A stretch of DNA of 57,935 nucleotides from an uncultured Planctomycetales bacterium (GTDB lineage: Bacteria; Omnitrophota; Gorgyraeia; Zapsychrales; Fredricksoniimonadaceae): assembly GCA_964520655.1 (NCBI GenBank), contig CAZFNI010000002.1, positions 1 through 57,935 of the forward strand, given 5' to 3'. This document shows positions 325 to 17,873 of the stretch, piece after piece. The notes under the pieces were generated by a model. It ran no database searches. It had not been told where the DNA came from and saw nothing but the letters and a program-made list of their open reading frames with translations. The stretch's first letter is position 1. Every line of letters starts with the position of its first letter. The translations under genes and the position numbers were made by a program.

Positions 325-335
325 ATTTTTTTAAA

Positions 336-1244
336 CTATTTTTTCAGAAGACGTGAAATATTGCCTCCACAGAGACTTATTCTGTCTTCCGTCGACAAAA
401 CATGCGAACTAACCGCGCTCAAAGAACCAGAAAGATTTTGATTGGCTGGAAAATCACTCCCCCAACAAATATGATCAATATTAACAACCTCTAACGCCGC
501 GCTCAGCGAAGCTGTCGATCGCGATCCACTCATATCCACATACAAGTTCTTAAAATAGTCCGATGGAGCCTTCCCCAAATCCTTGACAAAATTACGCTTG
601 CGCAGCATGGCATAGGTGGAATCAAAACGCTCTTTGACCAAAGGCAGCACACCGCCATAATGAGCAAAAATGAAATCAACTTCAGGAAACCGGCTAAAAA
701 CTCCGGACATCATCATTTTGCCAATGCATATGCTCACATCAAAGACATACTCAAGCACAGGGGTCAGTAAAGGATCGTTAACCCGTTCAATACCAATAGG
801 ATTGAGAATTTGAGAGTGCACATGGATAGGTATCCGGTGCTTTTGGGCAAATTCAAATACGGGATCAAAAAGCGGACTATCCAGATAAATCCCTTCATAA
901 CTGGAAGCAAGGGATAATATCTCAAGCCCAAGATCACGAATACGGCTCAATTCTGAAGGCATCGCCTCCGGCTTATCAACCGGGAGAATGCCACCCCCGA
1001 TAAATCGCCCATTGGAATTCTTGACTATATCAGCGATCTTCTGATTATAGATCCCGCACACAAAAGACCATCCGCCCATCTGCAGGTGCGCATCTGTCGT
1101 CGGGTATAACAACACCGCCTGATCCACCCCATATTCATCCATCACCTTAAGATGAGCATCCGCATCCGACCAAAACTGCTTAAAGAAAGCCGTATGTTGG
1201 GCTATCTCTGGCGGGATATAATGACTGTGAGCATCGATGACCAT
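336..1244 (-). CDS. Amidohydrolase-2 family metal-dependent hydrolase/decarboxylase (ACMSD/LigW-like)
   Basis: 302-aa ORF with IDAHSH at the N-terminus, then HVHS, FAHYGG and WGSDFP motifs typical of the TIM-barrel amidohydrolase-2 family. It is the last gene of the PKS operon and abuts the SDR gene with no gap. Confidence 0.75.
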   Translation of the reverse strand: MVIDAHSHYIPPEIAQHTAFFKQFWSDADAHLKVMDEYGVDQAVLLYPTTDAHLQMGGWSFVCGIYNQKIADIVKNSNGRFIGGGILPVDKPEAMPSELSRIRDLGLEILSLASSYEGIYLDSPLFDPVFEFAQKHRIPIHVHSQILNPIGIERVNDPLLTPVLEYVFDVSICIGKMMMSGVFSRFPEVDFIFAHYGGVLPLVKERFDSTYAMLRKRNFVKDLGKAPSDYFKNLYVDMSGSRSTASLSAALEVVNIDHICWGSDFPANQNLSGSLSAVSSHVLSTEDRISLCGGNISRLLKK

Positions 1245-2030
1245 CTATTTAGCCTGGGTTTGTTTGTAATCAATAATGGGTTTAGTCCAGGTGGTCAACT
1301 GATTAATGACCGCGAGCTCAAGCGGATTAGCATTGGCTGGCGCGGAAAGCGCGAATGTGACCATGTCCGCAACATCACTTGGATTCATCAGCCTGTCGCG
1401 CTGTTCTTTGGCCACATCTTTCAAATGGTCGGTCAGATCAGAATTAACCACCCCCGGAAGCAGCGAAGTGACTTTAATATTGTATTCTCTCATTTCCCAG
1501 AATAAGCCTTTTAAGAATGCACGCAGCCCCATTTTCAATGAACTGTATGTGAGAAATCCCCGAGGTATTGGATCAACAAGGGTTGAACCCGAGACCACAT
1601 TGATCAAATGACCGTCCTTACGCGCCACCATGTCCGGAATAACCAGACGGATCAAACGCACATAACCTAAATAATTGACATGAGCCAACATTTCAAAATC
1701 TTCGATCGGCTGTTCGTGAAAAGGATATTGACTAGAAACTCCAGCCACATTGATCAAAATATCGATCTGTCCAAAATTCTTTTTACCTTGCTCAACTAAA
1801 TTCTTTAAGTCTTCTAGCTTGGCCACATCGCAGGACACCCCGACCGCATTGATGCCGTATTTTTTCCTTAACTCATTGACCGTTTCATCCAGCGGACCTT
1901 GTTTGCGCGCCGCCAAGATCAAATTAGCGCCGTGTTCTGCCATACGCGTGGCGATCGCGCGGCCGATACCCCGGCTAGCCCCCGTGATCATGGCTGTTTT
2001 GCCCTTGAGATTAACTGTCGCATTGGCCAT
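1245..2030 (-). CDS. SDR-family oxidoreductase (candidate polyketide ketoreductase)
   Basis: 261 aa. Carries the TGASRGIGRAIA dinucleotide-binding motif, NVAG, and the YSSLK catalytic Tyr-x3-Lys. Confidence 0.85.
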   Translation of the reverse strand: MANATVNLKGKTAMITGASRGIGRAIATRMAEHGANLILAARKQGPLDETVNELRKKYGINAVGVSCDVAKLEDLKNLVEQGKKNFGQIDILINVAGVSSQYPFHEQPIEDFEMLAHVNYLGYVRLIRLVIPDMVARKDGHLINVVSGSTLVDPIPRGFLTYSSLKMGLRAFLKGLFWEMREYNIKVTSLLPGVVNSDLTDHLKDVAKEQRDRLMNPSDVADMVTFALSAPANANPLELAVINQLTTWTKPIIDYKQTQAK

Positions 2031-3191
2031 CTAAATATCCTTTCGTTGAACACTCATTTGAGACACTAATATTAACAATAAACCCATCAAAAATCCAATG
2101 ATCAAAAAGGTCAAACCAAAATTCTTCTGAACAAAATTACCGCTGATCCAGAAACCAATGCCGCCGCTAAAAAAACGCACCGCAGAATTAAGCGCAGCCA
2201 GCTCAGCCCGATACGTCGCCGAGAAATCCGTGAGAATGGTGGATATGCCATTGTGGGCGATCGTCCACCCGATCGAGATCATCGACAAAACACTTGTTAA
2301 CACAATAATTTGATAATGCCCATACAGTGCCATGATCGAGAAACTCACAATGGTTATGCCGATATAACACGCTTTGATACGTCCTACTTTATCGGAAATA
2401 AATCCCCCCAAGATCTGCCCTAATGATCCAGCGATCGATGTGACAATAATAATGAAGCTGATCATTTTTTGATCAAGACCGTAAACAGAATCCAAAAAAA
2501 CCCCGTACCACTTGCACACACCATGAAAGAACATGCTCATGAAAAAGATTAACACAAGTATCCGCCTCAAACCGCCGATACGCAGCGCGTCTTGATAATT
2601 GATCCTAATATGCGGATTGGATTCCATCCCATTCTTGGGACCCAAGATAAAACCGACCGCTACTAACATTCCTAAAATAGAAGGAACAATGAACAACCAA
2701 TGCCAGGAAGCGAATTCGCTGACGATCAACCCTAAAGTCGAACCAAAAAATGAAGCCCCAAAGAATAATCCTATGACCCTTCCATGAACTTTTTTCTCAA
2801 AGACCTTACCTAACGTCATCAACGCCATTGGTGTCACCGCGGCTGCCGCAACCCCAGCGATCACACGCCCCGCTAAAATAATACCTATATCATCAGACCA
2901 AAGACAGATCCAGCTCCCTAAGGCAAACAATACGCTGGAAACGATCATGATCATACGAACAGAATGTTTCGTGGCTAAATGCGCATAATACAACGCACAG
3001 AGTCCATAAGGGATCATATAAAACGAGATCATTGCTGCTACATCGCCTGCCGGCTTGTTCAAAGAACGGGCGATCGTCGGGATCGTGGCGATCAACGCCG
3101 AGATATTATAAGCGACCAGTATTCCTGACAGGCAAAACAACAGGAGGATATGCCGGCGATAACTATTTTTTGGCATGTGCTTGTGCTTCAA
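2031..3191 (-). CDS. MFS transporter (candidate exporter)
   Basis: 386 aa, hydrophobic throughout with about 12 helices. Has the MFS motif-A-like GGFISDKVGRIK. An alternative start (MPKNSYRR) lies at 3176. Confidence 0.8.
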   Translation of the reverse strand: MKHKHMPKNSYRRHILLLFCLSGILVAYNISALIATIPTIARSLNKPAGDVAAMISFYMIPYGLCALYYAHLATKHSVRMIMIVSSVLFALGSWICLWSDDIGIILAGRVIAGVAAAAVTPMALMTLGKVFEKKVHGRVIGLFFGASFFGSTLGLIVSEFASWHWLFIVPSILGMLVAVGFILGPKNGMESNPHIRINYQDALRIGGLRRILVLIFFMSMFFHGVCKWYGVFLDSVYGLDQKMISFIIIVTSIAGSLGQILGGFISDKVGRIKACYIGITIVSFSIMALYGHYQIIVLTSVLSMISIGWTIAHNGISTILTDFSATYRAELAALNSAVRFFSGGIGFWISGNFVQKNFGLTFLIIGFLMGLLLILVSQMSVQRKDI

Positions 3192-3612
3192 TGACTTTCT
3201 TAAATATCTTCATGTTATGCTGGGAGTGCTCGTTGACAAAACCCTCGATCTGCGCTGCCGTAAATTTCGTGAACTTAGGATCAAGCTCAAAATCCTGTAT
3301 CCAGGTCATTTTGATCCCGTCTTCCTGTGCCGTATACAGCCACATGATCTTCATATACTTAAAAGGGAAAAGCGGATCATGACGCTGGGCATAAGCAAAG
3401 TTCAATTCCTTAAATAACCAGCGTTTGGACACCCATGATTTACCCTCTTCATCCGTTAAACGAAAGGTGATCTCATTGCCCTTGCGCTCCAAGACATCCG
3501 CCTTGGCATATTCATCGCCAAATAATTCCGTCCAGCGTTCGATCTTATTAGAAATATCAAAAACCAGCTCGTAAGGAGCAGTGATAACAATCGAATTGAC
3601 CGTGTGTCCCAT
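3163..3612 (-). CDS. TcmN-type polyketide aromatase/cyclase (SRPBCC fold, mono-domain ARO/CYC)
   Basis: 149 aa. NSIVITAPYELVFDISNKIERWTELF, FKYMKIMWLYT, MTWIQDFELDP and HNMKIFKKVIE closely track the conserved blocks of TcmN-like ARO/CYC domains as I recall them. A strong SD (AAAGGAG) lies 6 nt before the ATG. Confidence 0.8.
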   Translation of the reverse strand: MGHTVNSIVITAPYELVFDISNKIERWTELFGDEYAKADVLERKGNEITFRLTDEEGKSWVSKRWLFKELNFAYAQRHDPLFPFKYMKIMWLYTAQEDGIKMTWIQDFELDPKFTKFTAAQIEGFVNEHSQHNMKIFKKVIEAQAHAKK

Positions 3613-3626
3613 AAAATTCTCCTTTA

Positions 3627-3699
3627 AAAAATAGGGGACAGCGCCCTATTTTTGCACTTTATTGATTGTCTCAAAATTAGGGTGCTGTCCCCTATTTTT
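3627..3699. repeat. Pair of palindromic terminator-like hairpin elements in inverted orientation
   Basis: 3627-3653 reads aaaaataggggacagcgccctattttt. The reverse complement of 3673-3699 reads aaaaataggggacagcaccctaatttt, a 25/27 match. Each copy can itself fold into a 10-bp stem (aaaaataggg/ccctattttt) with a 7-nt loop, flanked by A- and T-tracts. Confidence 0.8.
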
Positions 3700-3706
3700 A
3701 CCCCCA

Positions 3707-4096
3707 TTATTTCATTGTGATGTTGTCATTTTTCTTACGACTGTTTATATACTTTACACAAAATGCATAAGATAACCGAACAGGAATAAAGATCAAACAC
3801 CATATAATAGTTGGTAAAATTGAAGGATAAAACCCTTCTCTCATATAACGGGAATAACTCCATGCTGGGCTCTTTCCTGGAACAGGCATAGACAGACACA
3901 AAATAAAAAAGAAATGCCAAACCCACACCAACATCAAAGAAAAAGACACAATATTAGTACAGATATTCACTGATTGTGCAGAAAGTTTGCTTTTAAATAT
4001 TTTTACTACTAAGAAGCGAACTACCCAATAAAGCAAGATTGGTATCAATAAAAACACTATCAATATATAAAGAATTGGGTGCAAGAAAAAAAACAT
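3707..4096 (-). CDS. Hypothetical small integral membrane protein (about 4 TM), compositionally atypical
   Basis: The ORF track gives 3707-4132. I prefer the ATG at 4096 (MFFFLHPILY...) because AGGAG lies 5 nt upstream and it avoids overlapping the cyclase gene. The segment is AT-rich and I recognise no family motif. Confidence 0.5.
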   Translation of the reverse strand: MFFFLHPILYILIVFLLIPILLYWVVRFLVVKIFKSKLSAQSVNICTNIVSFSLMLVWVWHFFFILCLSMPVPGKSPAWSYSRYMREGFYPSILPTIIWCLIFIPVRLSYAFCVKYINSRKKNDNITMK

Positions 4097-4104
4097 CAAC
4101 GCTC

Positions 4105-4950
4105 CTAGATGATCACGACCACACGACTCCACCCTGCCCCAGCATTTCTAACTTTGACAGGTAGACAACTAACGGTAAACCCATAAGGCTTAGGTATCGC
4201 TCCCAAATTACCCAGACGCTCCATGTGGCAATATTCACGGCGTCTACCAAGAAAATGACACGGCCAAATCTTACTTTTATCTTTCGTTGTTAAGAATTCC
4301 TTAAACATCAGAAAACAAGGTCGATCAAGCCCAATTGTGTCAATCCCCATCATTTTGATCCCTTGATCCAACAAATACTCAACCGCATCGATCTGCATCC
4401 CGACATATTTATTCACATAATCATCCGTACCCAATAATTTATCGCCGCCGGTATAGATCAACACGATATCCATTGGTTTTAAGGTATATTTAATCTTTTT
4501 GAGAGCTTCAACAACATGCCCCTTATTGATCGCATCAGGAAACTTAAGATGAGTGAAGTCAAGCACAACACCCGGACCATAACACCATTCCAATGGCACA
4601 TCCATGATCTGTTTGGCAGGTTTGCCCTCGCAGGTCGAACCATAATGGAACGGGGCATCTACGTGTGACCCCATATGGACGGAAGAATTAACGATCTCAA
4701 GTGACAGCATCTCCCCCTCTGGGATCTCCTGTGCTGTTGCCACCCGCTCGCCTTTGTCAAAACGCTCCTGACCGCCCGGCTGCTTGGACATGACAACCCA
4801 ATTAAAGTGCTCAACCCCAGCTTTGTGCGTGATCCGCTCTATCGTTGCCGCATGGGTTTCGACCAAACTATCATCTATGGGAAGACTTAAGTCAATGATC
4901 TTCATATCAGTGTTTACATCCACACGAATGGCTGCCGCATCCGCCGTCAC
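4105..4950 (-). CDS. Cyclase-family protein (PF04199 'putative cyclase' / kynurenine-formamidase fold)
   Basis: HMGSHVDAPFHY matches the HxGTHxDxPxH metal-binding signature of this family. The 4950 start is GTG. An ATG start at 4905 (MKIIDLSLPID) would remove the overlap with the ACP tail. Confidence 0.75.
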   Translation of the reverse strand: MTADAAAIRVDVNTDMKIIDLSLPIDDSLVETHAATIERITHKAGVEHFNWVVMSKQPGGQERFDKGERVATAQEIPEGEMLSLEIVNSSVHMGSHVDAPFHYGSTCEGKPAKQIMDVPLEWCYGPGVVLDFTHLKFPDAINKGHVVEALKKIKYTLKPMDIVLIYTGGDKLLGTDDYVNKYVGMQIDAVEYLLDQGIKMMGIDTIGLDRPCFLMFKEFLTTKDKSKIWPCHFLGRRREYCHMERLGNLGAIPKPYGFTVSCLPVKVRNAGAGWSRVVVII

Positions 4951-5191
4951 CTGTTTTTGATTTAAGCAAAGCGACGATCGCGTTTAAGGAATGAGATTTC
5001 TTTAATTCATTATCTTTTAGAGCAACCCCTAATTCCTTCTTGATCGCAACGGATATTTCGACCATTTCTGTCGAATCAACATCCAAAGACTCTTCCAGAG
5101 AAGCATCAACAATGATCTCACTGTCTTTAACGTCCAACACCTTCTTTAGAATACCTTTAACCTTTGTTTCCAACTCTGCTTGTGTTTGCAT
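4907..5191 (-). CDS. Acyl carrier protein (type II PKS ACP) with an unusual Cys/His-rich C-terminal tail
   Basis: SLDVDSTEMVEISVAI contains the phosphopantetheine-Ser (DS) motif. The likely start is MQTQAELE at 5191, with AAAGGA upstream. The core four-helix length is followed by GDGGCGSHSCGCKH. Confidence 0.85.
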   Translation of the reverse strand: MQTQAELETKVKGILKKVLDVKDSEIIVDASLEESLDVDSTEMVEISVAIKKELGVALKDNELKKSHSLNAIVALLKSKTGDGGCGSHSCGCKH

Positions 5192-5196
5192 AACCA

Positions 5197-6429
5197 CTAT
5201 CCTTTCTGTAACACCATCACACAATTGATACCGCCTCGTCCGCGGTTAATGATCAATGCATTCTTTATTGGACGTTCCACGGGATGAGCCTTAATGATAT
5301 TGAGATCACATTGAGGGTCAATATTATCCACATTGATCGTCGGAGGAATAACGCCGTGTTCCATTGCCAGCACAGTCGTGATCACATCCAGTACCCCGCA
5401 CGCGCCCAGCATATTACCGTAAATAGATTTAGGCGCCGACACCGGCACCTTTAAGGCATATTGACCAAAAGCTTTTTTAATCGCTTTGACCTCACTGATA
5501 TCGCCGTCTTTCGTGGCCGCACCATCTGCACAAATGTAATCGATATTCTCTGGAGACAGCCCCGCATCCTTTAACGCTAACTCGATCGCCCTAGCCAATT
5601 CTTGCCCATCATTCGCTGGATCAATACGGTTGACCGCATCAGTTGTTGAGGCAACGCCGACGATATTGGCATAGACGTTAGCTTTCCTTTTGTCAACGCG
5701 AGAATGAGGCTCAAGCGTCAATACTCCAGCCCCTTCAGCGATCACTAAACCGTCTCGATCACGATCAAAAGGACGATACGCTTGGGCCGGCCGATCATTC
5801 TGACGACTTAAGACCCCCGATGTATTCGCACACAACAAGGCATACGGCGTCACCGGAGCTTCCATACCGCCGGCTAAAATAAAATCACATTTCCCCCGAT
5901 TGATCGTTTGTGCCGCATAACCGATCGCCATCAAAGAACTGGCCCGGTCAGAGACGATCGTCTTGCTAAAACCCTTGATCCCATAATGGATGGAGATCTG
6001 CCCTTGAGGAGCCGCTGGGAACCATGCAGATGCCATAAAGGGACTAACCCCCTCGCGTCCCTCCAAATACATATCACGCAGCTCCGTCTCCGCGTACAAC
6101 CAGCCGCCTAATGCATTGCCCATGAAAATACCGACACGTTTTAGATCTTCCTGGGATAGATTGATCTTAGCATCTTCCAAACACATTTCGGAAGCCACAA
6201 GGGCCATGTGCGAGAATAGGTCGATCTTCTTTAAAAGTCTTGAGGAAACATTACTGTACGCATCCAGCTCTTTAACGTGCCCGGCGATACGGGAAGGATA
6301 AAGCGAGGCATCAAAACGCTCTATTTTCTCTACCGCGCTTCGTCCTGATTTAATATTTGCCCAGAAAACACGTTTATCAATGCCACTAGGAGATATAACA
6401 CCTAAACCTGTGATCGCGATCGGTTGCAT
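5197..6429 (-). CDS. Ketosynthase beta / chain-length-factor-like subunit (catalytically inactive KS homologue)
   Basis: 410 aa, KS fold, collinear with KSalpha. VSDRASSLMA replaces STGCTAGTDS (no Cys). TDAVNRID replaces CNAYHMTD, and CADGAAT replaces SAHGSST (no His). It starts 4 nt after the KSalpha stop. Confidence 0.85.
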   Translation of the reverse strand: MQPIAITGLGVISPSGIDKRVFWANIKSGRSAVEKIERFDASLYPSRIAGHVKELDAYSNVSSRLLKKIDLFSHMALVASEMCLEDAKINLSQEDLKRVGIFMGNALGGWLYAETELRDMYLEGREGVSPFMASAWFPAAPQGQISIHYGIKGFSKTIVSDRASSLMAIGYAAQTINRGKCDFILAGGMEAPVTPYALLCANTSGVLSRQNDRPAQAYRPFDRDRDGLVIAEGAGVLTLEPHSRVDKRKANVYANIVGVASTTDAVNRIDPANDGQELARAIELALKDAGLSPENIDYICADGAATKDGDISEVKAIKKAFGQYALKVPVSAPKSIYGNMLGACGVLDVITTVLAMEHGVIPPTINVDNIDPQCDLNIIKAHPVERPIKNALIINRGRGGINCVMVLQKG

Positions 6430-6433
6430 AAAT

Positions 6434-7699: not shown

Positions 7700-7718
7700 A
7701 AATTAACCTTTAGTCTAT

Positions 7719-9157: not shown

Positions 9158-9432
9158 TTCATGGCTCCGTATTTCTTATAATCAAAACCAGCCTCGTCCA
9201 TGATCCTCACCATCAGCGAATAGAATGCCTTAGGCACTTCAGTTGTGAACGCATGCACAATATCACATTCTTCAACCTGGGATGACCCTCGTCCCTTGGC
9301 GTTTTGTTCCGCTTTTTTATTGACCACTTCTTTGGCTAAGCTTCTGTGGAATATCGGGATCAGCTGAAGCATTCTGTTATATTTTGCCAGCGCTCCGCTT
9401 TCCCAATTCATTGTTGTCACGACCATCGTCAT
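9154..9432 (-). CDS. Small PCP_red-like domain protein (partner of BchE-type radical SAM enzymes)
   Basis: WESGALAKYNRMLQLIPIFHRSLAKEVVNKKAEQNAKGRG resembles the W..eA...l..iP.f.R...r...E..A domain (protochlorophyllide reductase 57 kD subunit-type). The start at 9432 (MTMVV) avoids overlapping the radical SAM gene. Confidence 0.45.
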   Translation of the reverse strand: MTMVVTTMNWESGALAKYNRMLQLIPIFHRSLAKEVVNKKAEQNAKGRGSSQVEECDIVHAFTTEVPKAFYSLMVRIMDEAGFDYKKYGAMK

Positions 9433-9433
9433 A

Positions 9434-10906: not shown

Positions 10907-10986
10907 ATTTTTCTCCTCGTTAGTTTCTTATACTGTGATGCGATCTGCGTTAATAAATATATCCAAACAACTCCCAGCTTGCTTAG

Positions 10987-12480
10987 TCAGAACCAGGACG
11001 TGACAAGCGACCTTCCGCCCGGCGTCTGGTCTGTGACAATATTTTTTACTTGTGTATATTCATTTAAGCCGTCAATTCCCAATTCCCGTCCAAAGCCGCT
11101 TTTTTTACAACCACCAAATGGCGCTTCATTCAAGAAAACACCGTATGTATTGATCCAAACCGTACCGCAGCGCAACCGTTTGGCCAGGCTATTAGCTTTC
11201 ACCAGATCTTTGCTCCAGATCATCGCGGCTAATCCATAAGGACTATCATTAGCAATGGCAAGCGCCTGTTCAATCGATGAAAATGGGATCACGCACAGAA
11301 CCGGCCCAAAGATCTCTTCCTGGGCAACGCGCATATTATTTCGGACGTCGATCAAGATCGAGGGCTCAATATAGGCCCCATTATCAAACCCAGAAGGAAT
11401 TTTTCCGCCACACGCTAATTTTGCCCCTTCTTTGATCCCCTGCTGGACAAACTTCAACACATGATCACGCTGCTCTTGGCTGACAAGTGGTCCAAATTCC
11501 GTCTCATAACTATAGGCCGGACCGATCTTTAAACTTCGCGCCCGCTCAACCAACTTATTGACAAACTCATGATAGATCTTTTCCTCAACCAGAAGACGGG
11601 ATCCTGCTGTACACATCTGTCCCTGGTTTAAAAAGATCGCTGATAAACTCCCCCCAACAGCCGCATCCATATCACAATCGGCGAACACAAGATTAGGCGA
11701 CTTTCCGCCAAGTTCCATGATTGAACGCTTGACGCCTTTTGCAGCAGCAGCCATTACCTTCATCCCCGTAGTCGTTCCGCCAGTAAAGGAGATCATATCC
11801 AAATCTGGATGGCTGACGATCAAATCCCCTATCCCTTCATGCGCAGAAGAAATGATATTGACCACACCTTTAGGCAAACCAATTGATGCGATCAACCCGG
11901 CAAAATACATGATCGAGGTATTTGCCAAACGAGATGTTTTTAGTAAGACGGTATTTCCCGCCAGCAGCGCAGGTGCCAATTTCCAAGCTGTCATGATCAA
12001 CGGGTAATTCCAGGGAATGATCATACCGACCACACCAACAGGTTCGCGCTCAATGCGGCTTGATACAGGAGCAGAAACGTCAAGCATTTGGTGATCAAGG
12101 CTCCCTGACAAGCGGCCGAAATACTCGAATGTATCCGCGCAAGTCGGCACATCAATGAAAGTGGCATGCTTGATCGTTTTTCCGCCAGCAAGACATTCCA
12201 GCTCAGCAAGTTCCTTGGCATGCTCACGGACCAAAGCGCCAATCTTAAGCAAGAACTCCCCGCGCTCTTTGACCGTTAACCTCGGCCAAGAACCATGGTC
12301 AAAAGCCAAACGAGCCGCATTAATGGCGATCTGAGTATCTACATCATCAGCGTCTGCCATCCTGGCAAATACCTCCCCATTCGACGGGTTAATGGCATCA
12401 TAATATTTCCCCGCCAGTGGAGGCGTCATCCTGCCTTCTAATAAAAGTTCAAACTGCTTGATGTGAGTTTTGGTATTCAT
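10987..12480 (-). CDS. NAD(P)-dependent aldehyde dehydrogenase
   Basis: 497 aa. Has ELGGKSPNLVF (catalytic Glu), GQMCTAGSRLLV (catalytic Cys) and EEIFGPV. Confidence 0.9.
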   Translation of the reverse strand: MNTKTHIKQFELLLEGRMTPPLAGKYYDAINPSNGEVFARMADADDVDTQIAINAARLAFDHGSWPRLTVKERGEFLLKIGALVREHAKELAELECLAGGKTIKHATFIDVPTCADTFEYFGRLSGSLDHQMLDVSAPVSSRIEREPVGVVGMIIPWNYPLIMTAWKLAPALLAGNTVLLKTSRLANTSIMYFAGLIASIGLPKGVVNIISSAHEGIGDLIVSHPDLDMISFTGGTTTGMKVMAAAAKGVKRSIMELGGKSPNLVFADCDMDAAVGGSLSAIFLNQGQMCTAGSRLLVEEKIYHEFVNKLVERARSLKIGPAYSYETEFGPLVSQEQRDHVLKFVQQGIKEGAKLACGGKIPSGFDNGAYIEPSILIDVRNNMRVAQEEIFGPVLCVIPFSSIEQALAIANDSPYGLAAMIWSKDLVKANSLAKRLRCGTVWINTYGVFLNEAPFGGCKKSGFGRELGIDGLNEYTQVKNIVTDQTPGGRSLVTSWF

Positions 12481-13542
12481 TTATTCCACCGGAACCTGTG
12501 CCCACAACTGAAAAATACGGCTGCAAGGCGCATACCATTTAGAGATGCGCGCGAAATCCCCACGCAAATTCATCTTTTTCTGCGTTGTCGCCACAAAAGG
12601 ATCGATCTGGCGGTTAAAGACCGCGCGCCAGATCTCTTCGCTGGCAGTAATCAAGAATTCTGCGTTTACGTCTTTTCCTGTTTCGATGATCTGACCATTG
12701 CGGAATTTGAAACTATGAACAACTCCCGTTTCCTGCAGGCACACAGCCAGATCCATATTCATGGCCGTCTTTGTTCCTAATTCTTGCATTTGGGGATCAT
12801 TGTTAACAATGTGAACGATTTCTTTTATCTGTTCATTAGAAAACAACTTGTATTTCTTGCCGCCAACGGGTGACGCGGGATCAGTTTGTTTTGACCGCAG
12901 CGTCAGGGGGTCAATGGCTTCATCTCCTGCTACCCCACGGGGGGATGGGTGACGCGAGGACGAAACAAACTGTCCCGCGGCAGGACCCGTTCCTGCTCTA
13001 TAATGAATATCCACCAAATCCATCTTGACCTGCTCTTCTAACTCCTGTATCAATACGAACGCATCGAAAATATTTTTACTAACAGCCACAACACCATGGT
13101 TGCGAAGAACCACAATATTATTGCTTTTTAGTTCAGCCAACACAGGCTCAACATCTGTCACGGATGGCGTCGATTGCTCAACAGACTTAACCTCTCCCAA
13201 ATAAAATCTAGCCTCAAATGTTTTCGGTGTAAAAACTGTGTTACTTAGAAAGAACCCATTGGTATAGGTAGGATGCGTGTGAACGATAGCAGCAACGTCA
13301 GGAAAATTCTTATAAACTTCCGTATGCATCAACTTCTCGGAGGAAGCCTTGCCCTCGCCCACCACCTCACCAGCGATCTTCATAAACAAAACATCTTCCG
13401 GTTTTAAATAACCCAAACATGTCCCCGTCGCGGTGATCAACAGTGTTTCCTGGTCTATGCGGGCGCTGATATTCCCGTTATACCCAGTAACAAGGCCTTT
13501 GTCCCACAACAATTTCCCTATCTCAATGATCTTATTTTTCAT
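12481..13542 (-). CDS. Class II aldolase/adducin-fold enzyme fused to a C-terminal SCP2-like lipid-binding domain
   Basis: The N-terminal domain has GNISARI, MHTEVY...AIVHTHPTY and LRNHGVVAV (metal-ligand His pattern of FucA/MtnB/Ald2-type enzymes). A Pro/Gly/Ser-rich, GC-rich linker of about 50 aa follows. The C-terminal ~110 aa end in KKMNLRGDFARISKWYAP, which is SCP2-like. The ATG at 13542 forms an ATGA overlap with the upstream stop. Confidence 0.75.
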   Translation of the reverse strand: MKNKIIEIGKLLWDKGLVTGYNGNISARIDQETLLITATGTCLGYLKPEDVLFMKIAGEVVGEGKASSEKLMHTEVYKNFPDVAAIVHTHPTYTNGFFLSNTVFTPKTFEARFYLGEVKSVEQSTPSVTDVEPVLAELKSNNIVVLRNHGVVAVSKNIFDAFVLIQELEEQVKMDLVDIHYRAGTGPAAGQFVSSSRHPSPRGVAGDEAIDPLTLRSKQTDPASPVGGKKYKLFSNEQIKEIVHIVNNDPQMQELGTKTAMNMDLAVCLQETGVVHSFKFRNGQIIETGKDVNAEFLITASEEIWRAVFNRQIDPFVATTQKKMNLRGDFARISKWYAPCSRIFQLWAQVPVE

Positions 13543-14012
13543 TTTAGATATTTCCCTGGAACCCATTCTACTAAAGGCGCATAACCTTTAGTCCCTAGCG
13601 GGGCGATCTGGACATTCTCAAAACGTGTTATGCTCTTTGGATCCCCTAAGAATCGTGATCTAAGCTTGCTCTGGATCAATTGCACCGGCACCCGATGTTT
13701 CCTGGCTAGAACAGCATAGATCAATGCGCCGGTATCACATAATGCACCGCTCTTATCCGCGTATTGACATGCGAGCACCAAACGATGAACAAGTCCCTTG
13801 GCAAACAAGAACCCAGCCATGTTATCTGATATAACCGTCGGCGTTAGACCGGACTTCAAAAAGAACTTAACGTTCTCTTTTGCTGATTCCAACGAAGGTC
13901 TTCCCTCTGTTAGAAATACATGTTTGCCCTTAGGGGCTTTACACGCTTTCCCCTGATCTGAGGCGATCACGCCGCAATACAAAATGATCGACGACGGTTT
14001 ATAATCCAGCAT
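13539..14012 (-). CDS. Half-length eIF-2B/MtnA-family paralogue (C-terminal Rossmann-like half only)
   Basis: 157 aa. LTEGRPSLESAK...GLTPTVISDNMAGFL mirrors ETRPYMQGSKLT...LVTLVPDNAVGIL of the neighbouring full-length isomerase. The N-terminal domain is absent and the GxDR..ANGD block has diverged (CQYADKSGALCDTG). Confidence 0.6.
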   Translation of the reverse strand: MLDYKPSSIILYCGVIASDQGKACKAPKGKHVFLTEGRPSLESAKENVKFFLKSGLTPTVISDNMAGFLFAKGLVHRLVLACQYADKSGALCDTGALIYAVLARKHRVPVQLIQSKLRSRFLGDPKSITRFENVQIAPLGTKGYAPLVEWVPGKYLK

Positions 14013-14955
14013 GAATCGGTATCGCTTTCGTTATCAATTGATGCGGGACAACATCAAACCCAGGATAAAATCCCCGGACATTCTTCCCATACAAATGTTT
14101 TCCTTGAAATTCCACTATTTCCGACTCTTCACGCAATTCAATAGGCATATCTCGACCTGTTTTAACGCCCTTTGACGGCTGTGTCAGCACAATAACGGGA
14201 ACACCAAATTCCTTTGCCAGGACAGAAATTTGATAGCTGCCCACCTTATTGGCAATATCACCGTTAGCGGCACTGCGGTCTGACCCGATGATCACTTTAT
14301 TCACGCGCCCTTCCGATAATAATATCCCAACGGCATTATCGGGAACCAGCGTCACCAAAGCTTTTACCTGAGTTAATTCCCACACCGTTAATTTGGAACC
14401 CTGCATATACGGCCTGGTCTCCGTGGCATAGAATTTAACATTCCTGCCTTCTTTGAGCGCGATCGCCGCCGCCATAGCCAGCTCACCGCTGACATTGCAA
14501 TGCGTTAATATCACATCGCCATCCTTCATATTGGCCGCTATTTGAGCTACTCTCTCTAATCGGCGGCCGCGAATTCCTGCTAAGAACCCACCAACCGTTT
14601 TCACCACTGTGCTTCGCACATCACCGCCATTTGTTGCCGCTTTATGGGCTGCGCCCACAATGATCCCGGTCACTTCAGCGAATGGAAAAGTCGGACGGGA
14701 ATGATTCAATTGATGCGCGACTTTTTGTAAATGAGCGAGTAGATCCCCCTGATGATCAAGCTCCAATAAAAATGTATTAAGAACGACCAGGAACTGACCG
14801 AATGCACGGGTTTTCATCGAACGGATCACGGCTACCGCACCCCGGACATTCTTGACGGGGATATATTTTAATCGTTTAGGAACAAGTGTTTCATCAAGCA
14901 CATATAGCACCTGATCCTTAACATACGCTGGCCAAAATAATGGCGACTCGTACAT
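13999..14955 (-). CDS. MtnA-type (eIF-2B family) 5-methylthioribose/5-deoxyribose-1-phosphate isomerase
   Basis: 318 aa. Has ILTHCNVSG (catalytic Cys block), ATETRPYMQG, GSDRSAANGDIANKVGSY (catalytic Asp block) and DVVPHQLIT near the C-terminus. Confidence 0.8.
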   Translation of the reverse strand: MYESPLFWPAYVKDQVLYVLDETLVPKRLKYIPVKNVRGAVAVIRSMKTRAFGQFLVVLNTFLLELDHQGDLLAHLQKVAHQLNHSRPTFPFAEVTGIIVGAAHKAATNGGDVRSTVVKTVGGFLAGIRGRRLERVAQIAANMKDGDVILTHCNVSGELAMAAAIALKEGRNVKFYATETRPYMQGSKLTVWELTQVKALVTLVPDNAVGILLSEGRVNKVIIGSDRSAANGDIANKVGSYQISVLAKEFGVPVIVLTQPSKGVKTGRDMPIELREESEIVEFQGKHLYGKNVRGFYPGFDVVPHQLITKAIPIHAGL

Positions 14956-14957
14956 GC

Positions 14958-15722
14958 TTATTTACCTTCTCTGGCTTTGATCAGATTTAATGCAATATTG
15001 ATCAAAGACCCTTCAGCCATGTAATAATCCGGATTTAAGAAACCCATTTGGCCTGTCATTAAATTATCTGATACAGCAAGGATTGAAACAGCTGGTATCT
15101 TATAGATCTGTGCCAATGTTAAGAACACCGAGCTGACCATGTCCACCGCGACCGCCCCCTGGTCAACAACCCCATTGACCACTTCTTTGGTTTCGCGCAG
15201 GATCGCATCAGTACTCCATACTTTTCCGGTATGCACATTTAAACCAGATGCTTTGGCAGCTGTGATCAAGGCATTGTTCAATGACTCATCGGGCTTGGTG
15301 ATAAAATCTTTCTCCACATAATAAGGACTGACACCGTCGCCGCGCACAGCTCCCGTCGCGATAACCAGATCGCCGATATTGATATTCTTTGATAATGAAC
15401 CGCAGGAACCGATGCGGATCAAACACTGAGCCTGTGCATTACACAATATCTCAGTCGTGATAGCTGTATCTGCCGCAAAACGACCTCCATTGATCGCAGT
15501 GACACCGATCCCCTGATAAGTACCGGTGAACATCGTATATTCCATGAACGCAAAATTCTTAACAGGATTGTCGATCTTCTTGATCAAGCTATCAAGACGT
15601 TCCTTGGGTCCCGGGACAATGGCATATTTGCCGATATCTTTAGGACGTAACTGCACCATGTTCATCAGGTCTTTGCCCGTTAAATGCACATCCCTGGTCA
15701 TGCGCTCTGCCGTGTTTGACAT
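14958..15722 (-). CDS. PNP/UDP-family nucleoside phosphorylase (candidate MTA/5'-deoxyadenosine phosphorylase)
   Basis: 254 aa. AIVPGPKERL, RIGSCGSL and GDLVIATGAVRGDGVSPYY resemble hexameric PNP/uridine-phosphorylase-type enzymes. Substrate specificity is not readable from the sequence. Confidence 0.75.
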   Translation of the reverse strand: MSNTAERMTRDVHLTGKDLMNMVQLRPKDIGKYAIVPGPKERLDSLIKKIDNPVKNFAFMEYTMFTGTYQGIGVTAINGGRFAADTAITTEILCNAQAQCLIRIGSCGSLSKNINIGDLVIATGAVRGDGVSPYYVEKDFITKPDESLNNALITAAKASGLNVHTGKVWSTDAILRETKEVVNGVVDQGAVAVDMVSSVFLTLAQIYKIPAVSILAVSDNLMTGQMGFLNPDYYMAEGSLINIALNLIKAREGK

Positions 15723-15734
15723 AAATATCCTTTC

Positions 15735-17243
15735 TTAAATAAGTGCTTCCGACTTTAAGATCTCTTTATCGATCTTCCCTGTCCGGTTCTTCGGTAAATT
15801 GGTCCGGATCTCAATTGTTTGCGGGACCTTAAAATTCGCCAAATGTTCTTTAACAAAATATTTCAGTTGTAAACCATCCACGTCCGCATCTTCTTTCAGG
15901 ACAACAAAAGCCTTAACAGCTTCGCCGCGCATCGTATCTGGAACACCGATCACCGCTGCCTCTAAAACGTCTTTATGCTTGCAAAGAGCAGCCTCAACCT
16001 CAGGAGCATAGACGATCTGCCCGGCCACTTTGATCATTTCTTTCTTGCGCCCCGCAATATACAAAAATCCCTCGCTATCGAATCGTCCCAGGTCGCCTGT
16101 ATGGAAATATCCATTGCGTTTGGCAGCCTTTGTCGCCTCAGAATCCTTATAATATTCCTGCATCACAACCCAACCTTTAATGACGATCTCGCCGATCTCT
16201 CCAGCAGCAAGTGGCTTATCCTGATCATCAACGATCAAGATCTCACAATTTGGTGCCGGCTTGCCTACACTCTCGATCTTATCGCTGTTAAGCGGCGTTA
16301 CCGTATTGGGCGGACATGTTTCCGTCATCCCCCAACCATTTAACAATCGGGCATTAGGGCAATAGCGGTGGAAACGTTCAAGGATCTCTTTCGATGACGG
16401 AGCCCCAAAGACCACTACCCATCGCAAACTACTGAGGTCAAACTGATCCAAATGCTTCAGTGTCAATAGCGCCGTATACATCGGAGGCACAATATGAAAA
16501 CATGTGACTTTATAGGTAACAACATTCTTTAGGAATTCCAATGGATGAAAACGATCCATCAATACCAGTGTGATGCCAAAAATAATACAATTCTGGATAT
16601 AAATAAACCCGCCAATATGGCTTAAAGGAATCGCGCATAATTTGACATCTTTATCCGTCAGATCCACAAAATGGTGCATCGCTTCCGGAGACCCATCCAA
16701 ATGCTTATAATTAAGCACTATGCCTTTGGGGGCACCCGTTGTACCCGATGTGTACATCAACAGGGCCGGATCGTTCTCCTGGAGATCAACAGGTGAAAAG
16801 CCATTGTGAGCTGCCACATCTTGAAAAGGCACCTCCCATGAGACCCCAAGAGCATCGCCTAAAAAAACAACTTTTTTCAAAGAAGCAACGGCTGCCTTGA
16901 TCGCGCTAACATCAATATCCTGTTTATATTGCATGACGAGGATCTCAGCTTCGCCATGACTAAGACAAGATATTAATTCATCATTTTTAAGCATGTAATC
17001 TAACGGAATAACGGTAGCGCCGCAGCAAAATGAGGATAAATACGTCAACACATACTCAGGAGTATTGGGTAAATAAACGGCAATGCGGCTGGATTTTTTG
17101 ATATTTAAAGAACGCAGGCCTTGAGCAAGTGATAATACCTGGGAATGGAGGTCAGAGAAAGACACCACTCTGTCTTTAAAAATAATAGCGTTCTTATTGC
17201 CAAAACGCTTAGCTGCCGATCCAAGAAGATTATATATATTCAT
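15735..17243 (-). CDS. AMP-dependent acyl-CoA/acyl-ACP synthetase (adenylate-forming ligase)
   Basis: 502 aa. Has YTSGTTGAPKGI (A3 motif), GWGMTE, YFHTGDLG and GRKKEMIKVAG. It is the first gene of the PKS operon. Confidence 0.9.
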   Translation of the reverse strand: MNIYNLLGSAAKRFGNKNAIIFKDRVVSFSDLHSQVLSLAQGLRSLNIKKSSRIAVYLPNTPEYVLTYLSSFCCGATVIPLDYMLKNDELISCLSHGEAEILVMQYKQDIDVSAIKAAVASLKKVVFLGDALGVSWEVPFQDVAAHNGFSPVDLQENDPALLMYTSGTTGAPKGIVLNYKHLDGSPEAMHHFVDLTDKDVKLCAIPLSHIGGFIYIQNCIIFGITLVLMDRFHPLEFLKNVVTYKVTCFHIVPPMYTALLTLKHLDQFDLSSLRWVVVFGAPSSKEILERFHRYCPNARLLNGWGMTETCPPNTVTPLNSDKIESVGKPAPNCEILIVDDQDKPLAAGEIGEIVIKGWVVMQEYYKDSEATKAAKRNGYFHTGDLGRFDSEGFLYIAGRKKEMIKVAGQIVYAPEVEAALCKHKDVLEAAVIGVPDTMRGEAVKAFVVLKEDADVDGLQLKYFVKEHLANFKVPQTIEIRTNLPKNRTGKIDKEILKSEALI

Positions 17244-17288
17244 TATCAGAAGAGTCTTGGGTGTTGATGGTAAAATTTTATTACTACG

Positions 17289-17316
17289 ATTTTATTAGAT
17301 AAGCGGCTTTAGTCAA
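17289..17316 (-). promoter_or_regulatory. Candidate sigma70 promoter for the PKS operon
   Basis: On the minus strand there is TTGACT (17316-17311), a 16-nt spacer and TAAAAT (17294-17289), about 45 nt upstream of the ligase ATG at 17243. Confidence 0.4.
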
Positions 17317-17327
17317 GAAATCTTTAC

Positions 17328-17345
17328 ATCCTAACAGGTTAGGAT
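17328..17345. promoter_or_regulatory. Perfect 7-bp/4-nt-loop palindrome: candidate PadR operator or padR terminator
   Basis: atcctaa-cagg-ttaggat lies 10 nt after the padR stop and 12 nt upstream of the candidate -35. No T-tract follows on the minus strand, so an operator role is at least as likely as a terminator. Confidence 0.35.
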
Positions 17346-17354
17346 AACCCGATC

Positions 17355-17867
17355 TCAAAGCCTTTCGATCAAATCAGTGGTGGAGCGGATCTCTGCATGT
17401 ATTAATTCGAGGCTGTGCTGATGGATCAGGAAAGATTGAGCCGAGTCTTGCTGCGCTCTATCCCTTAATACCGACACTTCTCTAGCGATCTTTTTTAAGA
17501 ACGCTATCCGCGCCTTTAGACGACGTTTGGCAATCGGTTTATTCGTCAAATGGATAAAATATAACGAGAGATCGATCTGGAAAAATGGACGTTCAACAGA
17601 AGAAAAACTTTCCTGCATCAACAGATCGAATTTCTTTCTGCCTTTATCAGTGATACGATACACATACTTCTCAGGGAATCTACCCTGCCGGCCCGTTTCC
17701 TTGGCAACAAGGCCGTCCTTTTCCATTTTCATCAAAGGGTAATAGATCGATTTGATCTTAAGACCGGCACTTTGCTTAAGATCATCATGGATCTGCCGCT
17801 TGATCTCATAGCCATGCTTTGGACGGTCAACGAGTAATCCAAGAAAAAGTAATTCATTCTCGATCAT
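17355..17867 (-). CDS. PadR-family transcriptional regulator
   Basis: 170 aa. LLVDRPKHGYEIKRQI...IYYPLMKMEKDGLV is the PadR winged-helix signature. Confidence 0.85.
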   Translation of the reverse strand: MIENELLFLGLLVDRPKHGYEIKRQIHDDLKQSAGLKIKSIYYPLMKMEKDGLVAKETGRQGRFPEKYVYRITDKGRKKFDLLMQESFSSVERPFFQIDLSLYFIHLTNKPIAKRRLKARIAFLKKIAREVSVLRDRAQQDSAQSFLIHQHSLELIHAEIRSTTDLIERL

Positions 17868-17873
17868 AGTATT

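Follow-up and report, generated by a model that had tools for sequence, protein, structure and literature searches.

The 57,935-nt stretch of DNA analysed here (the window; contig CAZFNI010000002.1 of assembly GCA_964520655.1) contains, at positions 336-17867, about 20 tightly packed open reading frames (ORFs) which are predicted to encode an aromatic type II polyketide synthase (PKS) together with a six-gene module that includes a B12-binding radical S-adenosylmethionine (SAM) enzyme. On balance, we lean towards the reading that this region is an ancient, vertically inherited operon of the phylum Omnitrophota, in which an oxygen-independent aromatic type II PKS is combined with the module and the acyl carrier protein (ACP) of the PKS receives an acid produced by the module. 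All of the ORFs lie on the minus strand and several are joined by 4-nt overlaps or zero-nt junctions, which bears out the original prediction, made from the letters alone, of some 20 co-directional genes with ATGA-type overlaps. Every gene which that prediction had named was recovered at its position on the minus strand, and the Pfam families match. These genes include the three proposed cyclase folds (TcmN-type, PF04199 and NTF2/SnoaL-like, the last matching DUF4440 and, weakly, SnoaL_3), as well as a short-chain dehydrogenase/reductase (SDR), an ApbA-family reductase, an amidohydrolase-2, a major facilitator superfamily (MFS) transporter, an AMP-ligase and a PadR regulator. As had also been proposed for the accessory set, no oxygenase family is present among the Pfam matches in 336-17867.

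The conservation of the cluster was followed through its ketosynthase (KS) subunit KSalpha. More than 8000 relatives of this protein are found in the databases, and identity to it is at least 79% for all of the top 120; the named ones among these 120 belong to Candidatus Omnitrophota or Omnitrophica and the rest are unattributed metagenome entries. A scan with one genome per GTDB species yielded 522 relatives, and our analyses of related loci rest on the best 80 of them, which are 76-95% identical and come nearly all from Omnitrophota metagenome-assembled genomes (MAGs), some of them labelled "uncultured Planctomycetales". Searching these 80 loci by tblastn with 23 proteins of the window reveals that about 45 loci longer than 15 kb share the whole 17-kb block in collinear order, with the AMP-ligase at one end and the amidohydrolase at the other. 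Identities are 76-90% for KSalpha, 68-90% for the PF04199 cyclase, 65-89% for the aromatase/cyclase (ARO/CYC), 67-81% for the chain-length factor (CLF) and 52-69% for the aldehyde dehydrogenase (ALDH), with 62-85% for the SDR, 48-77% for the small protein at 9154-9432 and 38-64% for a shortened MtnA-like protein, mini-MtnA (all loci). All catalytic residues checked are invariant, except for the first histidine of the N-terminal HxH motif of the amidohydrolase, which is kept in 34 of 36 loci (the second is kept in all 36).

The genomic position of the cluster is also conserved. In 28 of the 29 loci where a 16S rRNA gene was found, it starts 126-382 nt downstream of the amidohydrolase gene on the same strand; in one locus it lies at 1843 nt, and one locus with sufficient room has no 16S. 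A full 16S-tRNA-tRNA-23S operon follows the amidohydrolase gene in L010, L042, L057 and L079. The window shows this layout too: 282 nt separate the amidohydrolase gene from the 16S, and the rRNA operon is directly downstream of the cluster, but the contig breaks inside this operon. The full 16S from which the original prediction had proposed to assign taxonomy is thus not in the window, which contains only its first 54 nt; an Rfam search of the window at gathering thresholds returned no rRNA gene and a tRNA scan returned no tRNA. Compared with the L010 reference, the 16S genes of the related loci are 69-94% identical (four short matches at contig ends reach 98-100%), which by sequence corresponds to a divergence of order to class level. 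The collinear block, the fixed 16S neighbour and the deep 16S divergence argue for old vertical inheritance of the operon in Omnitrophota and not for a recent acquisition, a conclusion that we hold with great confidence. The diderm host of the original prediction stands, and the cluster is not an isolated one: it is phylum-wide and adjoins the rRNA operon.

Variation among the loci affects a few positions. The NTF2 gene is present only in a subset of loci, and many others have beside the ApbA gene a protein of 156-167 aa which is weakly SRPBCC-like; the MFS gene is found in most loci and is missing in some. Insertions between the conserved genes encode a transposase, a DNA methylase, toxin-antitoxin nucleotidyltransferases, a helicase, an ATPase and a glutaredoxin, and several have no family match. 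In L025 (13125-16590), L032 (15993-20326) and L026 (11409-14603 and 15868-17154) the cluster is interrupted while the biosynthetic gene order is kept, the interrupting genes being a Mutator-family transposase, a DNA methylase fragment, DUF2204/AbiEii-type nucleotidyltransferases, a DEAD-box helicase and an HSDR_N protein. We considered the variable genes as extra tailoring enzymes and rejected this, because by family matches they are mainly mobile, restriction-type or toxin-antitoxin insertions.

The core of the PKS consists of KSalpha, a catalytically dead CLF-like homologue and an ACP (Table 1). When aligned to the actinorhodin KS, the Cys-His-His triad of KSalpha is invariant in 81 of 81 sequences, and the motifs STGCTAGTD, AYHMT and AHGSST that had been read from the sequence hold this triad. 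The CLF gene is located 4 nt downstream of KSalpha and, as had been noticed, its product lacks all three catalytic residues. Alignment to FabF places Arg, Asp and Asn at the positions of the Cys and the two His, and these replacements are found in all 63 true CLFs. The DS-motif ACP expected after the KS pair was confirmed, and its DSTEMVE motif is conserved in the related loci. The C-terminus of the window ACP (4907-4945) has a Cys/His-rich tail, GGCGSHSCGCKH, and similar tails (..SCGCGH) occur only in a lineage subset (L006, L007, L011, L033, L034, L043 and L056). This tail could be a metal-binding or redox feature; to our knowledge, no such tail is known on an ACP of a type II PKS.

Among solved structures, KSalpha scores 384 bits with the actinorhodin KS, 366 bits with Photorhabdus AntD and 358 bits with the best FabF, and the polyene-type KS structures 6kxd and 9s5h reach 230 and 266 bits. 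In NCBIfam, fabF is the best model for both KS proteins (451 and 392 bits) and KSalpha passes the KASII subfamily cutoff, so that a test of nesting within FabF was needed. Among 1.84 billion representative proteins, the nearest relatives of KSalpha outside the phylum are at most 52% identical, and the named ones are a "minimal PKS ketosynthase (KS alpha)", Laceyella/Thermoactinomyces proteins and a TcmK-like protein of Streptomyces glaucescens (45%). In a neighbour-joining tree, the Omnitrophota KSalpha sequences, with the signature TGCT(A/S)G, are placed in a TGCxxG clade that also includes AntD, the TcmK-like protein and the actinorhodin KS and is separate from the FabF (TACA) clade; the KSalpha-type clade was recovered in 79% of 200 bootstrap replicates. 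By both structure scores and tree, KSalpha does not nest inside FabF.

The cyclases lead to the same conclusion. The Polyketide_cyc and PF04199 models are passed, and the ARO/CYC matches the structures of TcmN (2rez, E = 1e-24) and of the WhiE ARO/CYC (3tvr, 3e-23). Equivalents of the TcmN residues Y35, W65, S67, R69, W95, W108, Q110 and N136 are invariant in 49 of 49 loci, and the metal motif HxxxHxDxxxH of the PF04199 cyclase in 55 of 55; this second protein, which has weak structural links to kynurenine formamidase, is a candidate later-ring cyclase. No dehydratase, enoyl reductase or aryl-polyene gene set is present in the cluster, which together with the two invariant cyclases points in the same direction as the KSalpha tree. 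We consider it very probable, judging from these sequence comparisons, that the system is an aromatic type II PKS. The proposal of a genuine KSalpha/CLF/ACP system in a diderm, non-actinobacterial genome is thus supported by structure scores, tree and cyclase families alike.

The remaining enzymes of the PKS part are consistent with tailoring and transport. The amidohydrolase has 5-carboxyvanillate decarboxylase and ACMSD as its nearest solved relatives, and orthologues 34-40% identical to it are found in the PKS clusters L081 and L085. The SDR, a candidate ketoreductase, is missing from the deltaproteobacterial version of the cluster described below. The MFS protein is a putative exporter. 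The AMP-ligase belongs to the long-chain-fatty-acid-CoA ligase subfamily (432 bits), and a promoter-like site is located at 17316-17289 in front of it. The link of the 92-aa protein to PCP_red is weak, with a match below cutoff; a PCP_red protein is present in the related PKS cluster L081.

The six genes of the module encode a nucleoside phosphorylase, an MtnA-like isomerase, mini-MtnA, a class II aldolase that carries a fused SCP2 domain at its C-terminus (aldolase::SCP2), an ALDH and the B12-binding radical SAM enzyme. The phosphorylase matches uridine phosphorylase (93 bits) and the hexameric archaeal methylthioadenosine (MTA) phosphorylase of Sulfolobus (77 bits) in the PDB, with weaker matches to HpnG (49 bits) and futalosine hydrolase (25 bits) and none to an MtnP model. 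The MtnA-like protein has the Cys of THCN and the Asp of NGD and scores 191-197 bits with the mtnA models, below their equivalog cutoffs; its predicted substrate is a 5-substituted ribose-1-phosphate. Mini-MtnA keeps the Cys and Asp as well (read directly) and is fused to MtnA in L091. Named families of the radical SAM enzyme give 180 bits for BchE (cutoff 481) and 130 bits for HpnJ, and no equivalog cutoff is reached.

The aldolase keeps the metal and phosphate residues of FucA in its SSE, HTH and NHG motifs (read directly), and the fold of its structure model matches FucA and the 5-deoxyribulose-1-phosphate aldolase 6btd. A disordered linker of about 37 residues joins it to the C-terminal domain, which in the model has an alpha-alpha-beta4-alpha-alpha-beta-alpha-alpha pattern and carries a signature, DPFxATxQKKxxLxxG...WYxP, that is conserved in all lineages and across phyla. 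A fold search with the aldolase model returned matches to the aldolase domain and none to SCP2, and the assignment to SCP2 draws on the signature, on the secondary structure predicted for the domain and on the Pfam matches of orthologous proteins. In every lineage the aldolase gene abuts or overlaps the ALDH gene, and ALDH orthologues (38-48% identical) directly follow the aldolase in L087, L090 and L092-L094.

Distant homologues lead to stand-alone copies of the module in Fibrobacterales and on three metagenome contigs. The order phosphorylase, MtnA, B12-radical SAM enzyme, mini-MtnA, aldolase::SCP2 and ALDH is found in L090, L092, L093 and L094, where each protein is 33-48% identical to its window counterpart; the radical SAM orthologues inside these modules are 37-40% identical. 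A further copy of the radical SAM enzyme (39%), cut by the contig end, is situated just upstream of the phosphorylase in L091. The module occurs in at least three phyla and, as judged by gene order, is autonomous, with the radical SAM enzyme as one of its members. The original prediction had listed a B12-radical SAM enzyme and the salvage of SAM by-products side by side. Both sets of genes are there, but they are not separate functions, as they form one autonomous module with aldolase::SCP2. Given this autonomy and the SCP2 fusion, plain salvage is only one possible reading, and the attached module may represent a new kind of pathway.

The surroundings of the module differ between lineages. 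In the Fibrobacterales MAG L092, two AMP-ligases and an ACP precede it; in L091 it is located beside a 37% identical AMP-ligase and an LpxL-type acyltransferase. In L090, a contig related to "Deltaproteobacteria" MAGs, it is flanked by MMPL and DUF1302 proteins. MAGs with the NCBI label "Deltaproteobacteria bacterium" have orthologues of 14 window genes in a different order. The proteins of this version show identities to the window of 63% for KSalpha, 58% for CLF, 58% for the radical SAM enzyme, 56% for the ARO/CYC, 50% for the ApbA-type reductase, 48% for the phosphorylase, 47% for ALDH, 46% for the cyclase, 44% for MtnA, 40% for the amidohydrolase and 38% for aldolase::SCP2. The order begins with MMPL, DUF1329, radical SAM enzyme, aldehyde ferredoxin oxidoreductase (AFOR), ApbA, a 196-aa protein, KS, CLF, ACP, cyclase and ARO/CYC, and continues with MFS, AFOR, amidohydrolase, a DAO-like protein, phosphorylase, MtnA, mini-MtnA, aldolase::SCP2, ALDH, DUF1329 and DUF1302. 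The module is thus downstream of the PKS and the radical SAM enzyme upstream of it, and MMPL, DUF1302 and DUF1329 genes flank the module in L085 and L090. The KSalpha sequences of Omnitrophota and of these MAGs form one clade with 100% bootstrap. In a second phylum the genes have thus been rearranged and the module is still found with the same PKS, and elsewhere a ligase, an ACP and an acyltransferase are its neighbours. Both observations argue for a functional link, and we regard coupling of the module to the PKS as fairly probable.

The deltaproteobacterial version also contains three AFOR genes (L085/L087 4851-6824 and 14177-16156; L087 18194-20092) where Omnitrophota has the small protein and the SDR. 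These gene families hint at a central place for acid/aldehyde redox steps in the pathway of anaerobes.

On the basis of these homologies a route can be proposed. KSalpha, CLF and ACP would build a poly-beta-ketoacyl chain, which the ARO/CYC would fold, aromatising the first rings, with the chain left unreduced at C-9 by analogy to TcmN and WhiE, from which the regiochemistry of unreduced chains is known. The PF04199 cyclase would close a further ring, the SDR and the ApbA-type reductase would reduce carbonyls, and the ACMSD/LigW-type enzyme would take a carboxyl group off an aromatic acid without oxygen. In most lineages the MFS pump would export the product. The lack of an oxygenase fits an anaerobe. 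The module, by homology to the dihydroxyacetone phosphate (DHAP) shunt, would convert a 5'-substituted 5'-deoxyadenosine via the ribose-1-phosphate and ribulose-1-phosphate forms into DHAP and an aldehyde, which ALDH would oxidise to an acid. The ligase could then activate this acid and load it onto the sole ACP as the starter unit of the PKS. A Gln at the Cys position of a CLF is associated with decarboxylative priming, and the window CLF, which has no such Gln, may not prime in this way; loading of a starter by the ligase would explain its absence. We put forward only tentatively that the starter acid comes from the module.

The SCP2 domain and the type of ligase, along with the lipid-export neighbours, suggest that the acid, or the 5'-substituent, is hydrophobic. 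More speculatively, the radical SAM enzyme might attach a 5'-deoxyadenosyl group to a hydrophobic substrate, following the logic of MqnE/MqnB and HpnH/HpnG, although we think such adenosylation chemistry unlikely. FucA mutant studies describe a mobile C-terminal tail of FucA over the aldehyde side of the active site, and it is conceivable that SCP2 stands in for this tail. The probable product is a hydrophobic polycyclic phenol whose role would be physiological and not occasional.

Several observations weigh against the favoured reading. All functions in the cluster are assigned by homology, and the PKS assignment itself has soft points: the margin of KSalpha between the actinorhodin KS and FabF is small, the CLF is nearer FabF than the actinorhodin CLF (297 versus 256 bits), and the tree was built by neighbour-joining, with moderate support and with no labelled aryl-polyene references. 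The canonical Gln of CLFs is replaced by Arg in 63 of 63 sequences, and in the deltaproteobacterial CLF too (ISDRASS). The cluster has no phosphopantetheinyl transferase (PPTase), malonyl transacylase or ketosynthase III. For the module, the SCP2 match in the window is weak (E = 0.006, below the Pfam threshold; PF02036 is recorded in orthologues), and we know of no B12-binding radical SAM enzyme that transfers an adenosyl group. L014, L018, L047 and L080 lack the radical SAM gene at this position and keep the rest of the block. In the 30 kb covered of the deltaproteobacterial version there is no AMP-ligase. Finally, the modules of L093 (on a 36% GC contig, after a dcw cell-wall cluster) and L094 (stand-alone on a 59% GC contig) occur without any PKS, ligase or ACP, from which it follows that the module has a function of its own and may be plain disposal of 5'-deoxyadenosine.

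This last point leads to the strongest alternative, in which the PKS is real but the phosphorylase, MtnA, aldolase and ALDH form only a DHAP shunt, chemically unconnected to the polyketide, that would turn 5'-deoxyadenosine (and MTA) into DHAP and acetate. The substrate would come from the neighbouring B12-radical SAM enzyme and the other radical SAM enzymes of the cell, and the ligase would recycle the acid or serve the PKS in some other way. A nucleoside phosphorylase, MtnA and a class II aldolase are indeed the known triad of the shunt (PMC10986504, PMC12632272), the catalytic Cys and Asp of MtnA are kept, the aldolase fold matches the 5-deoxyribose-salvage aldolase 6btd, a radical SAM enzyme inside the module would make the substrate, and in L093 and L094 the module occurs alone, in a housekeeping-like manner, without assembly-line genes. 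However, this account finds no role for SCP2, which is fused in every lineage examined and is more conserved than the aldolase domain, nor for mini-MtnA. The ligase is of the fatty-acyl type and not an acetyl-CoA synthetase, the module remains with this PKS in a second phylum although the genes there have been rearranged, and ligases, an ACP and an acyltransferase are found beside it in two further lineages. Four Omnitrophota loci also retain the module without the radical SAM enzyme. We judge a mere shunt to be somewhat unlikely.

A bolder view would make the module a new, radical-SAM-initiated pathway of two-carbon homologation. Here the radical SAM enzyme would couple the 5'-deoxyadenosyl group to a hydrophobic substrate, the phosphorylase would remove adenine, MtnA and mini-MtnA would isomerise the 5-substituted ribose-1-phosphate, and the aldolase, with SCP2 gripping the hydrophobic part, would release DHAP, leaving an aldehyde to be oxidised to the acid that, in Omnitrophota, would be loaded on the ACP as starter of the oxygen-independent PKS; the final product would be a phenolic lipid or quinone of core physiology. 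We consider this whole sequence of steps distinctly unlikely.

The polyketide could also be a redox-active, quinone-type carrier or a membrane phenolic lipid of core Omnitrophota physiology instead of a secondary metabolite, for example an electron carrier for a complex-I-type enzyme where ubiquinone or menaquinone pathways are incomplete. A precedent is found in mycobacteria, whose polyketide quinones are products of type III PKSs. In favour of this, KSalpha is 76-95% identical across loci whose 16S differ by up to about 20-30%, the cluster has a fixed place beside the rRNA operon, and the catalytic residues checked are invariant; nuoM/N-like genes are present in the window, lipid-export genes flank the related cluster, and many Omnitrophota have incomplete or absent quinone pathways (Seymour et al. 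2023, PMC10066038). However, the cluster has no prenyltransferase or quinone-forming enzyme, the MFS exporter and PadR fit a secreted or toxic compound, and the radical SAM gene and the alternation of the NTF2 and SRPBCC-like genes vary by lineage, implying variation of the product. We consider a quinone-type carrier or membrane lipid improbable. Least probable is a FabF-derived fatty-acid or polyene-type (aryl-polyene- or ladderane-like) system with a non-aromatic lipid product, for which the fabF model scores and KASII cutoff, the FabF-like CLF and the classing of many non-actinobacterial KS-CLF pairs as fatty-acid-synthase-like in a catalogue (PMC10132072) could be cited, but which is contradicted by the lack of dehydratase, enoyl reductase and aryl-polyene-type genes, by the invariant PF04199 cyclase and TcmN-type ARO/CYC with all its pocket residues, by the TGCT(A/S)G signature and grouping of KSalpha and by the low scores of the polyene-type KS structures against 384 bits for the actinorhodin KS.

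Coordinates of the cluster and of other features of the window are given in Table 1.

Table 1. Features of the window, in order of position.
Feature	Position	Strand	Evidence
16S rRNA gene, first 54 nt	1-54	-	100% match to positions 1-54 of the L010 16S; sequence also read directly
50-nt element, two copies 103 nt apart	175-224 and 278-327	-	direct repeat, 84% identical
Amidohydrolase-2, ACMSD/LigW/gamma-resorcylate decarboxylase type	336-1244	-	PF04909, 89 bits
SDR	1245-2030	-	PF00106, 164 bits, and KR domain; generic FabG-like in PDB search
MFS transporter	2031-3191	-	PF07690, 140 bits; weak matches to drug/efflux subfamilies
Single-domain TcmN/WhiE-type ARO/CYC	3163-3612	-	Polyketide_cyc, 26.1 bits (cutoff 23.4)
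ORF of 141 codons	3707-4132	-	in the 492-bp gap between PF04199 cyclase and ARO/CYC; palindromic hairpin at 3627-3653
PF04199 'putative cyclase'	4105-4950	-	100 bits; HMGSHVDAPFH, the HxGxHxDxPxH metal motif
ACP	4907-5191	-	PF00550 PP-binding; serine motif LDVDSTEMVE
CLF-like KS homologue, catalytically dead	5197-6429	-	ketoacyl-synt N and C domains; R162/D302/N339
KSalpha	6434-7699	-	ketoacyl-synt; C171/H311/H348; STGCTAG, AYHMT, AHGSST
NTF2-like protein, variable accessory gene	7719-8150	-	DUF4440 PF14534, 37 bits; weak SnoaL_3
ApbA/PanE (ketopantoate-reductase family) NAD(P)H reductase	8147-9157	-	PF02558 and PF08546; TIGR00745, 151 bits, above cutoff
Small conserved protein, 92 aa	9154-9432	-	DUF2621 (E = 2e-4) and PCP_red (E = 0.011), both below cutoffs
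B12-binding radical SAM enzyme	9434-10906	-	PF02310, 41 bits, and PF04055, 56 bits, both above cutoffs
NAD(P)-dependent ALDH	10987-12480	-	PF00171, 553 bits; abuts aldolase stop, no gap
Class II FucA/DrdA-type ketose-1-phosphate aldolase with C-terminal SCP2	12481-13542	-	PF00596
Mini-MtnA, 157 aa	13539-14012	-	IF-2B profile positions 125-266, the C-terminal catalytic domain of MtnA
MtnA-like aldose-ketose isomerase, 318 aa	13999-14955	-	PF01008, 164 bits
Nucleoside phosphorylase, hexameric Udp/DeoD/archaeal-MTAP type	14958-15722	-	PF01048, 124 bits
AMP-ligase, fatty-acyl-CoA-ligase-like, first operon gene	15735-17243	-	PF00501 and PF13193; PDB match 3ivr
PadR-family regulator, cluster head	17355-17867	-	PF03551; upstream of the ligase in 9 loci, 53-61% identical
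hldD	19122-20093		TIGR02197, 370 bits (cutoff 275)
Glycosyltransferase family 9 (GT9) gene	40347-41273		
nuoM/N-like genes	55652-57894		

The hldD, GT9 and nuo genes that had been reported from this contig are all present, and the GC content of 42-49% is, as claimed, far below that of actinobacteria. Likely start codons are at 5191 for the ACP, 9432 for the small ORF and 13542 for the aldolase, the ORFs of the ACP and the aldolase themselves reaching to 5224 and 13566. The ORF at 3707-4132 was examined as an extra gene and rejected, as it has neither a family match nor a tblastn match in the 80 related loci; it is probably a non-gene or lineage-specific. Each of the 50-nt elements contains, by consensus match, a promoter-like TTGACA-16-TATTCT site with TG before it (219-192 and 322-295, minus strand), and the duplicated elements are presumably tandem rRNA promoters; overall, a scan for promoters and terminators gave results not above chance.

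Directly upstream of PadR, at 17874-19111, there are two ORFs of 150 and 262 aa with no family match. The 150-aa ORF is conserved (40-61%) upstream of PadR in L014, L018, L072 and L080, and may be part of the regulatory end of the cluster. A second co-directional block at 32413-44654 encodes a zinc alcohol dehydrogenase, two methyltransferases, an acetolactate-synthase-like thiamine pyrophosphate enzyme, an SDR, the alpha and beta subunits of a 2-oxoacid dehydrogenase E1, a sugar epimerase, a GT9-like protein, a small radical SAM protein and YfhO-like membrane proteins. By its appearance, this block would serve the modification of glycans or of the cell envelope. Nearly every ORF of at least 100 aa in the 58 kb is on the minus strand, and the GC skew is negative throughout with a steadily falling cumulative skew, which fits a single replichore with strong gene co-orientation and genes pointing towards the rRNA operon.

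Type II PKSs are usually viewed as variable, horizontally mobile antibiotic clusters of actinomycetes. The present system is a complete aromatic type II PKS that has kept its gene order, under strong purifying selection, throughout an uncultured phylum of ultra-small and mostly anaerobic cells. Its phylum-wide collinearity beside the rRNA operon points to a physiological aromatic polyketide made without oxygenases. Solving the module would bear either on the wider biology of radical SAM by-products or on a new route from SAM to carboxylic-acid building blocks. The expression of type II PKSs in E. coli-like hosts is a long-standing problem, for which the highly conserved KSalpha/CLF pair offers a candidate.

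In the literature, "Candidatus Omnitrophica" appears in one line of a catalogue as one of 14 phyla with KS-CLF pairs (PMC10132072). This is a phylogenetic catalogue, and its accessible text contains nothing on the content, conservation or genomic position of the Omnitrophota cluster, on the module or on a product. The main text of an Omnitrophota genomics paper (PMC10066038) makes no mention of secondary metabolism, ketoacyl synthases or radical SAM enzymes. Beyond the catalogue line, the searchable literature, as far as its accessible text extends, contains no description of the cluster or the module, in agreement with the earlier statement that the accessory set had not been described. Of particular interest are the phylum-wide vertical conservation by the rRNA operon, the oxygen-independent tailoring set and the widespread SCP2/radical SAM module.

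Two other clusters came to light among the relatives. L082 (GCA_034438135.1, DAOTTL010000293.1, 2060-13192) encodes an 869-aa fused KS-CLF protein, the top representative match to KSalpha, with a UbiA prenyltransferase, three methyltransferases, a Lactamase_B-type cyclase, a SnoaL-like protein and an FAD monooxygenase as neighbours, and this gene set suggests a prenylated aromatic polyketide, possibly quinone-like. L081 (a Logan SRR9651403 contig, 1-18816) has four KS-type products (one a fused pair), two ACPs, Polyketide_cyc, PCP_red and cupin proteins, an Amidohydro_2 protein 34% identical to that of the window, a patatin and a B12-radical SAM enzyme. By its gene families it is another non-actinobacterial type of PKS that shares several accessory families.

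Comparison with known systems places the parts of the cluster differently. The futalosine (MqnE, MqnB) and hopanoid (HpnH, HpnG, HpnJ) routes use radical adenosylation, and in the futalosine route a C3 fragment of the ribose is lost later as well. The window resembles them in having a radical SAM enzyme and a member of the PNP_UDP_1 family, which would cleave adenine off a 5'-C-linked adenosine. However, it has no MqnE or HpnH homologue, its radical SAM enzyme has a B12-binding domain, and the trimming would use phosphorylated DHAP-shunt steps.

With the DHAP shunt and 5-deoxyribose salvage (DrdK/DrdI/DrdA; MtnP or Pfs plus MtnK, MtnA and Ald2), the module shares a phosphorylase, an MtnA-type isomerase and a class II aldolase in one operon. 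It differs in its SCP2 fusion and mini-MtnA, neither of which is found in described shunts, in its fixed B12-radical SAM enzyme and ALDH, and in a phosphorylase that is Udp/DeoD-like and not MtnP-like. Moreover, the module repeatedly adjoins ligases, ACPs, PKSs or lipid exporters.

The original prediction had compared the gene inventory to the Photorhabdus ant cluster. Both are Gram-negative type II PKSs with a PF04199 cyclase, a reductase and an AMP-ligase-type gene, and AntD is the second-best structural match of KSalpha (366 bits). The likeness is nevertheless superficial, as most of the defining features fail. The window has a single-domain ARO/CYC and no AntH-type two-domain aromatase, AntI-type hydrolase or PPTase (AntB), whereas the ant-like metagenomic cluster L083 shows the ant set of two-domain aromatase, FrsA-type hydrolase and a ligase adjoining the ACP. 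The neighbour-joining tree groups AntD with L083 and not with Omnitrophota, and an AntG-like role for the window ligase is unsupported, given its 23% identity to the L083 ligase.

The closest parallel is the tetracenomycin/WhiE type (TcmK/L/M with TcmN), with which the window shares a Cys-His-His KSalpha, an inactive KS homologue, a discrete ACP and a single-domain ARO/CYC with the same pocket residues as TcmN. Judged from sequence, the PKS part works like such a system, the CLF Gln being the only tested defining feature that is absent. The differences are nonetheless considerable. KSalpha is only about 45% identical, the CLF has Arg and not Gln, and the host is a low-GC diderm anaerobe. The window has no oxygenases, TcmI/TcmJ-type cyclases or O-methyltransferases, and it adds a PF04199 cyclase, an ApbA-type reductase, an ACMSD-type decarboxylase and the six-gene module, all within a cluster that has been inherited vertically across a phylum.

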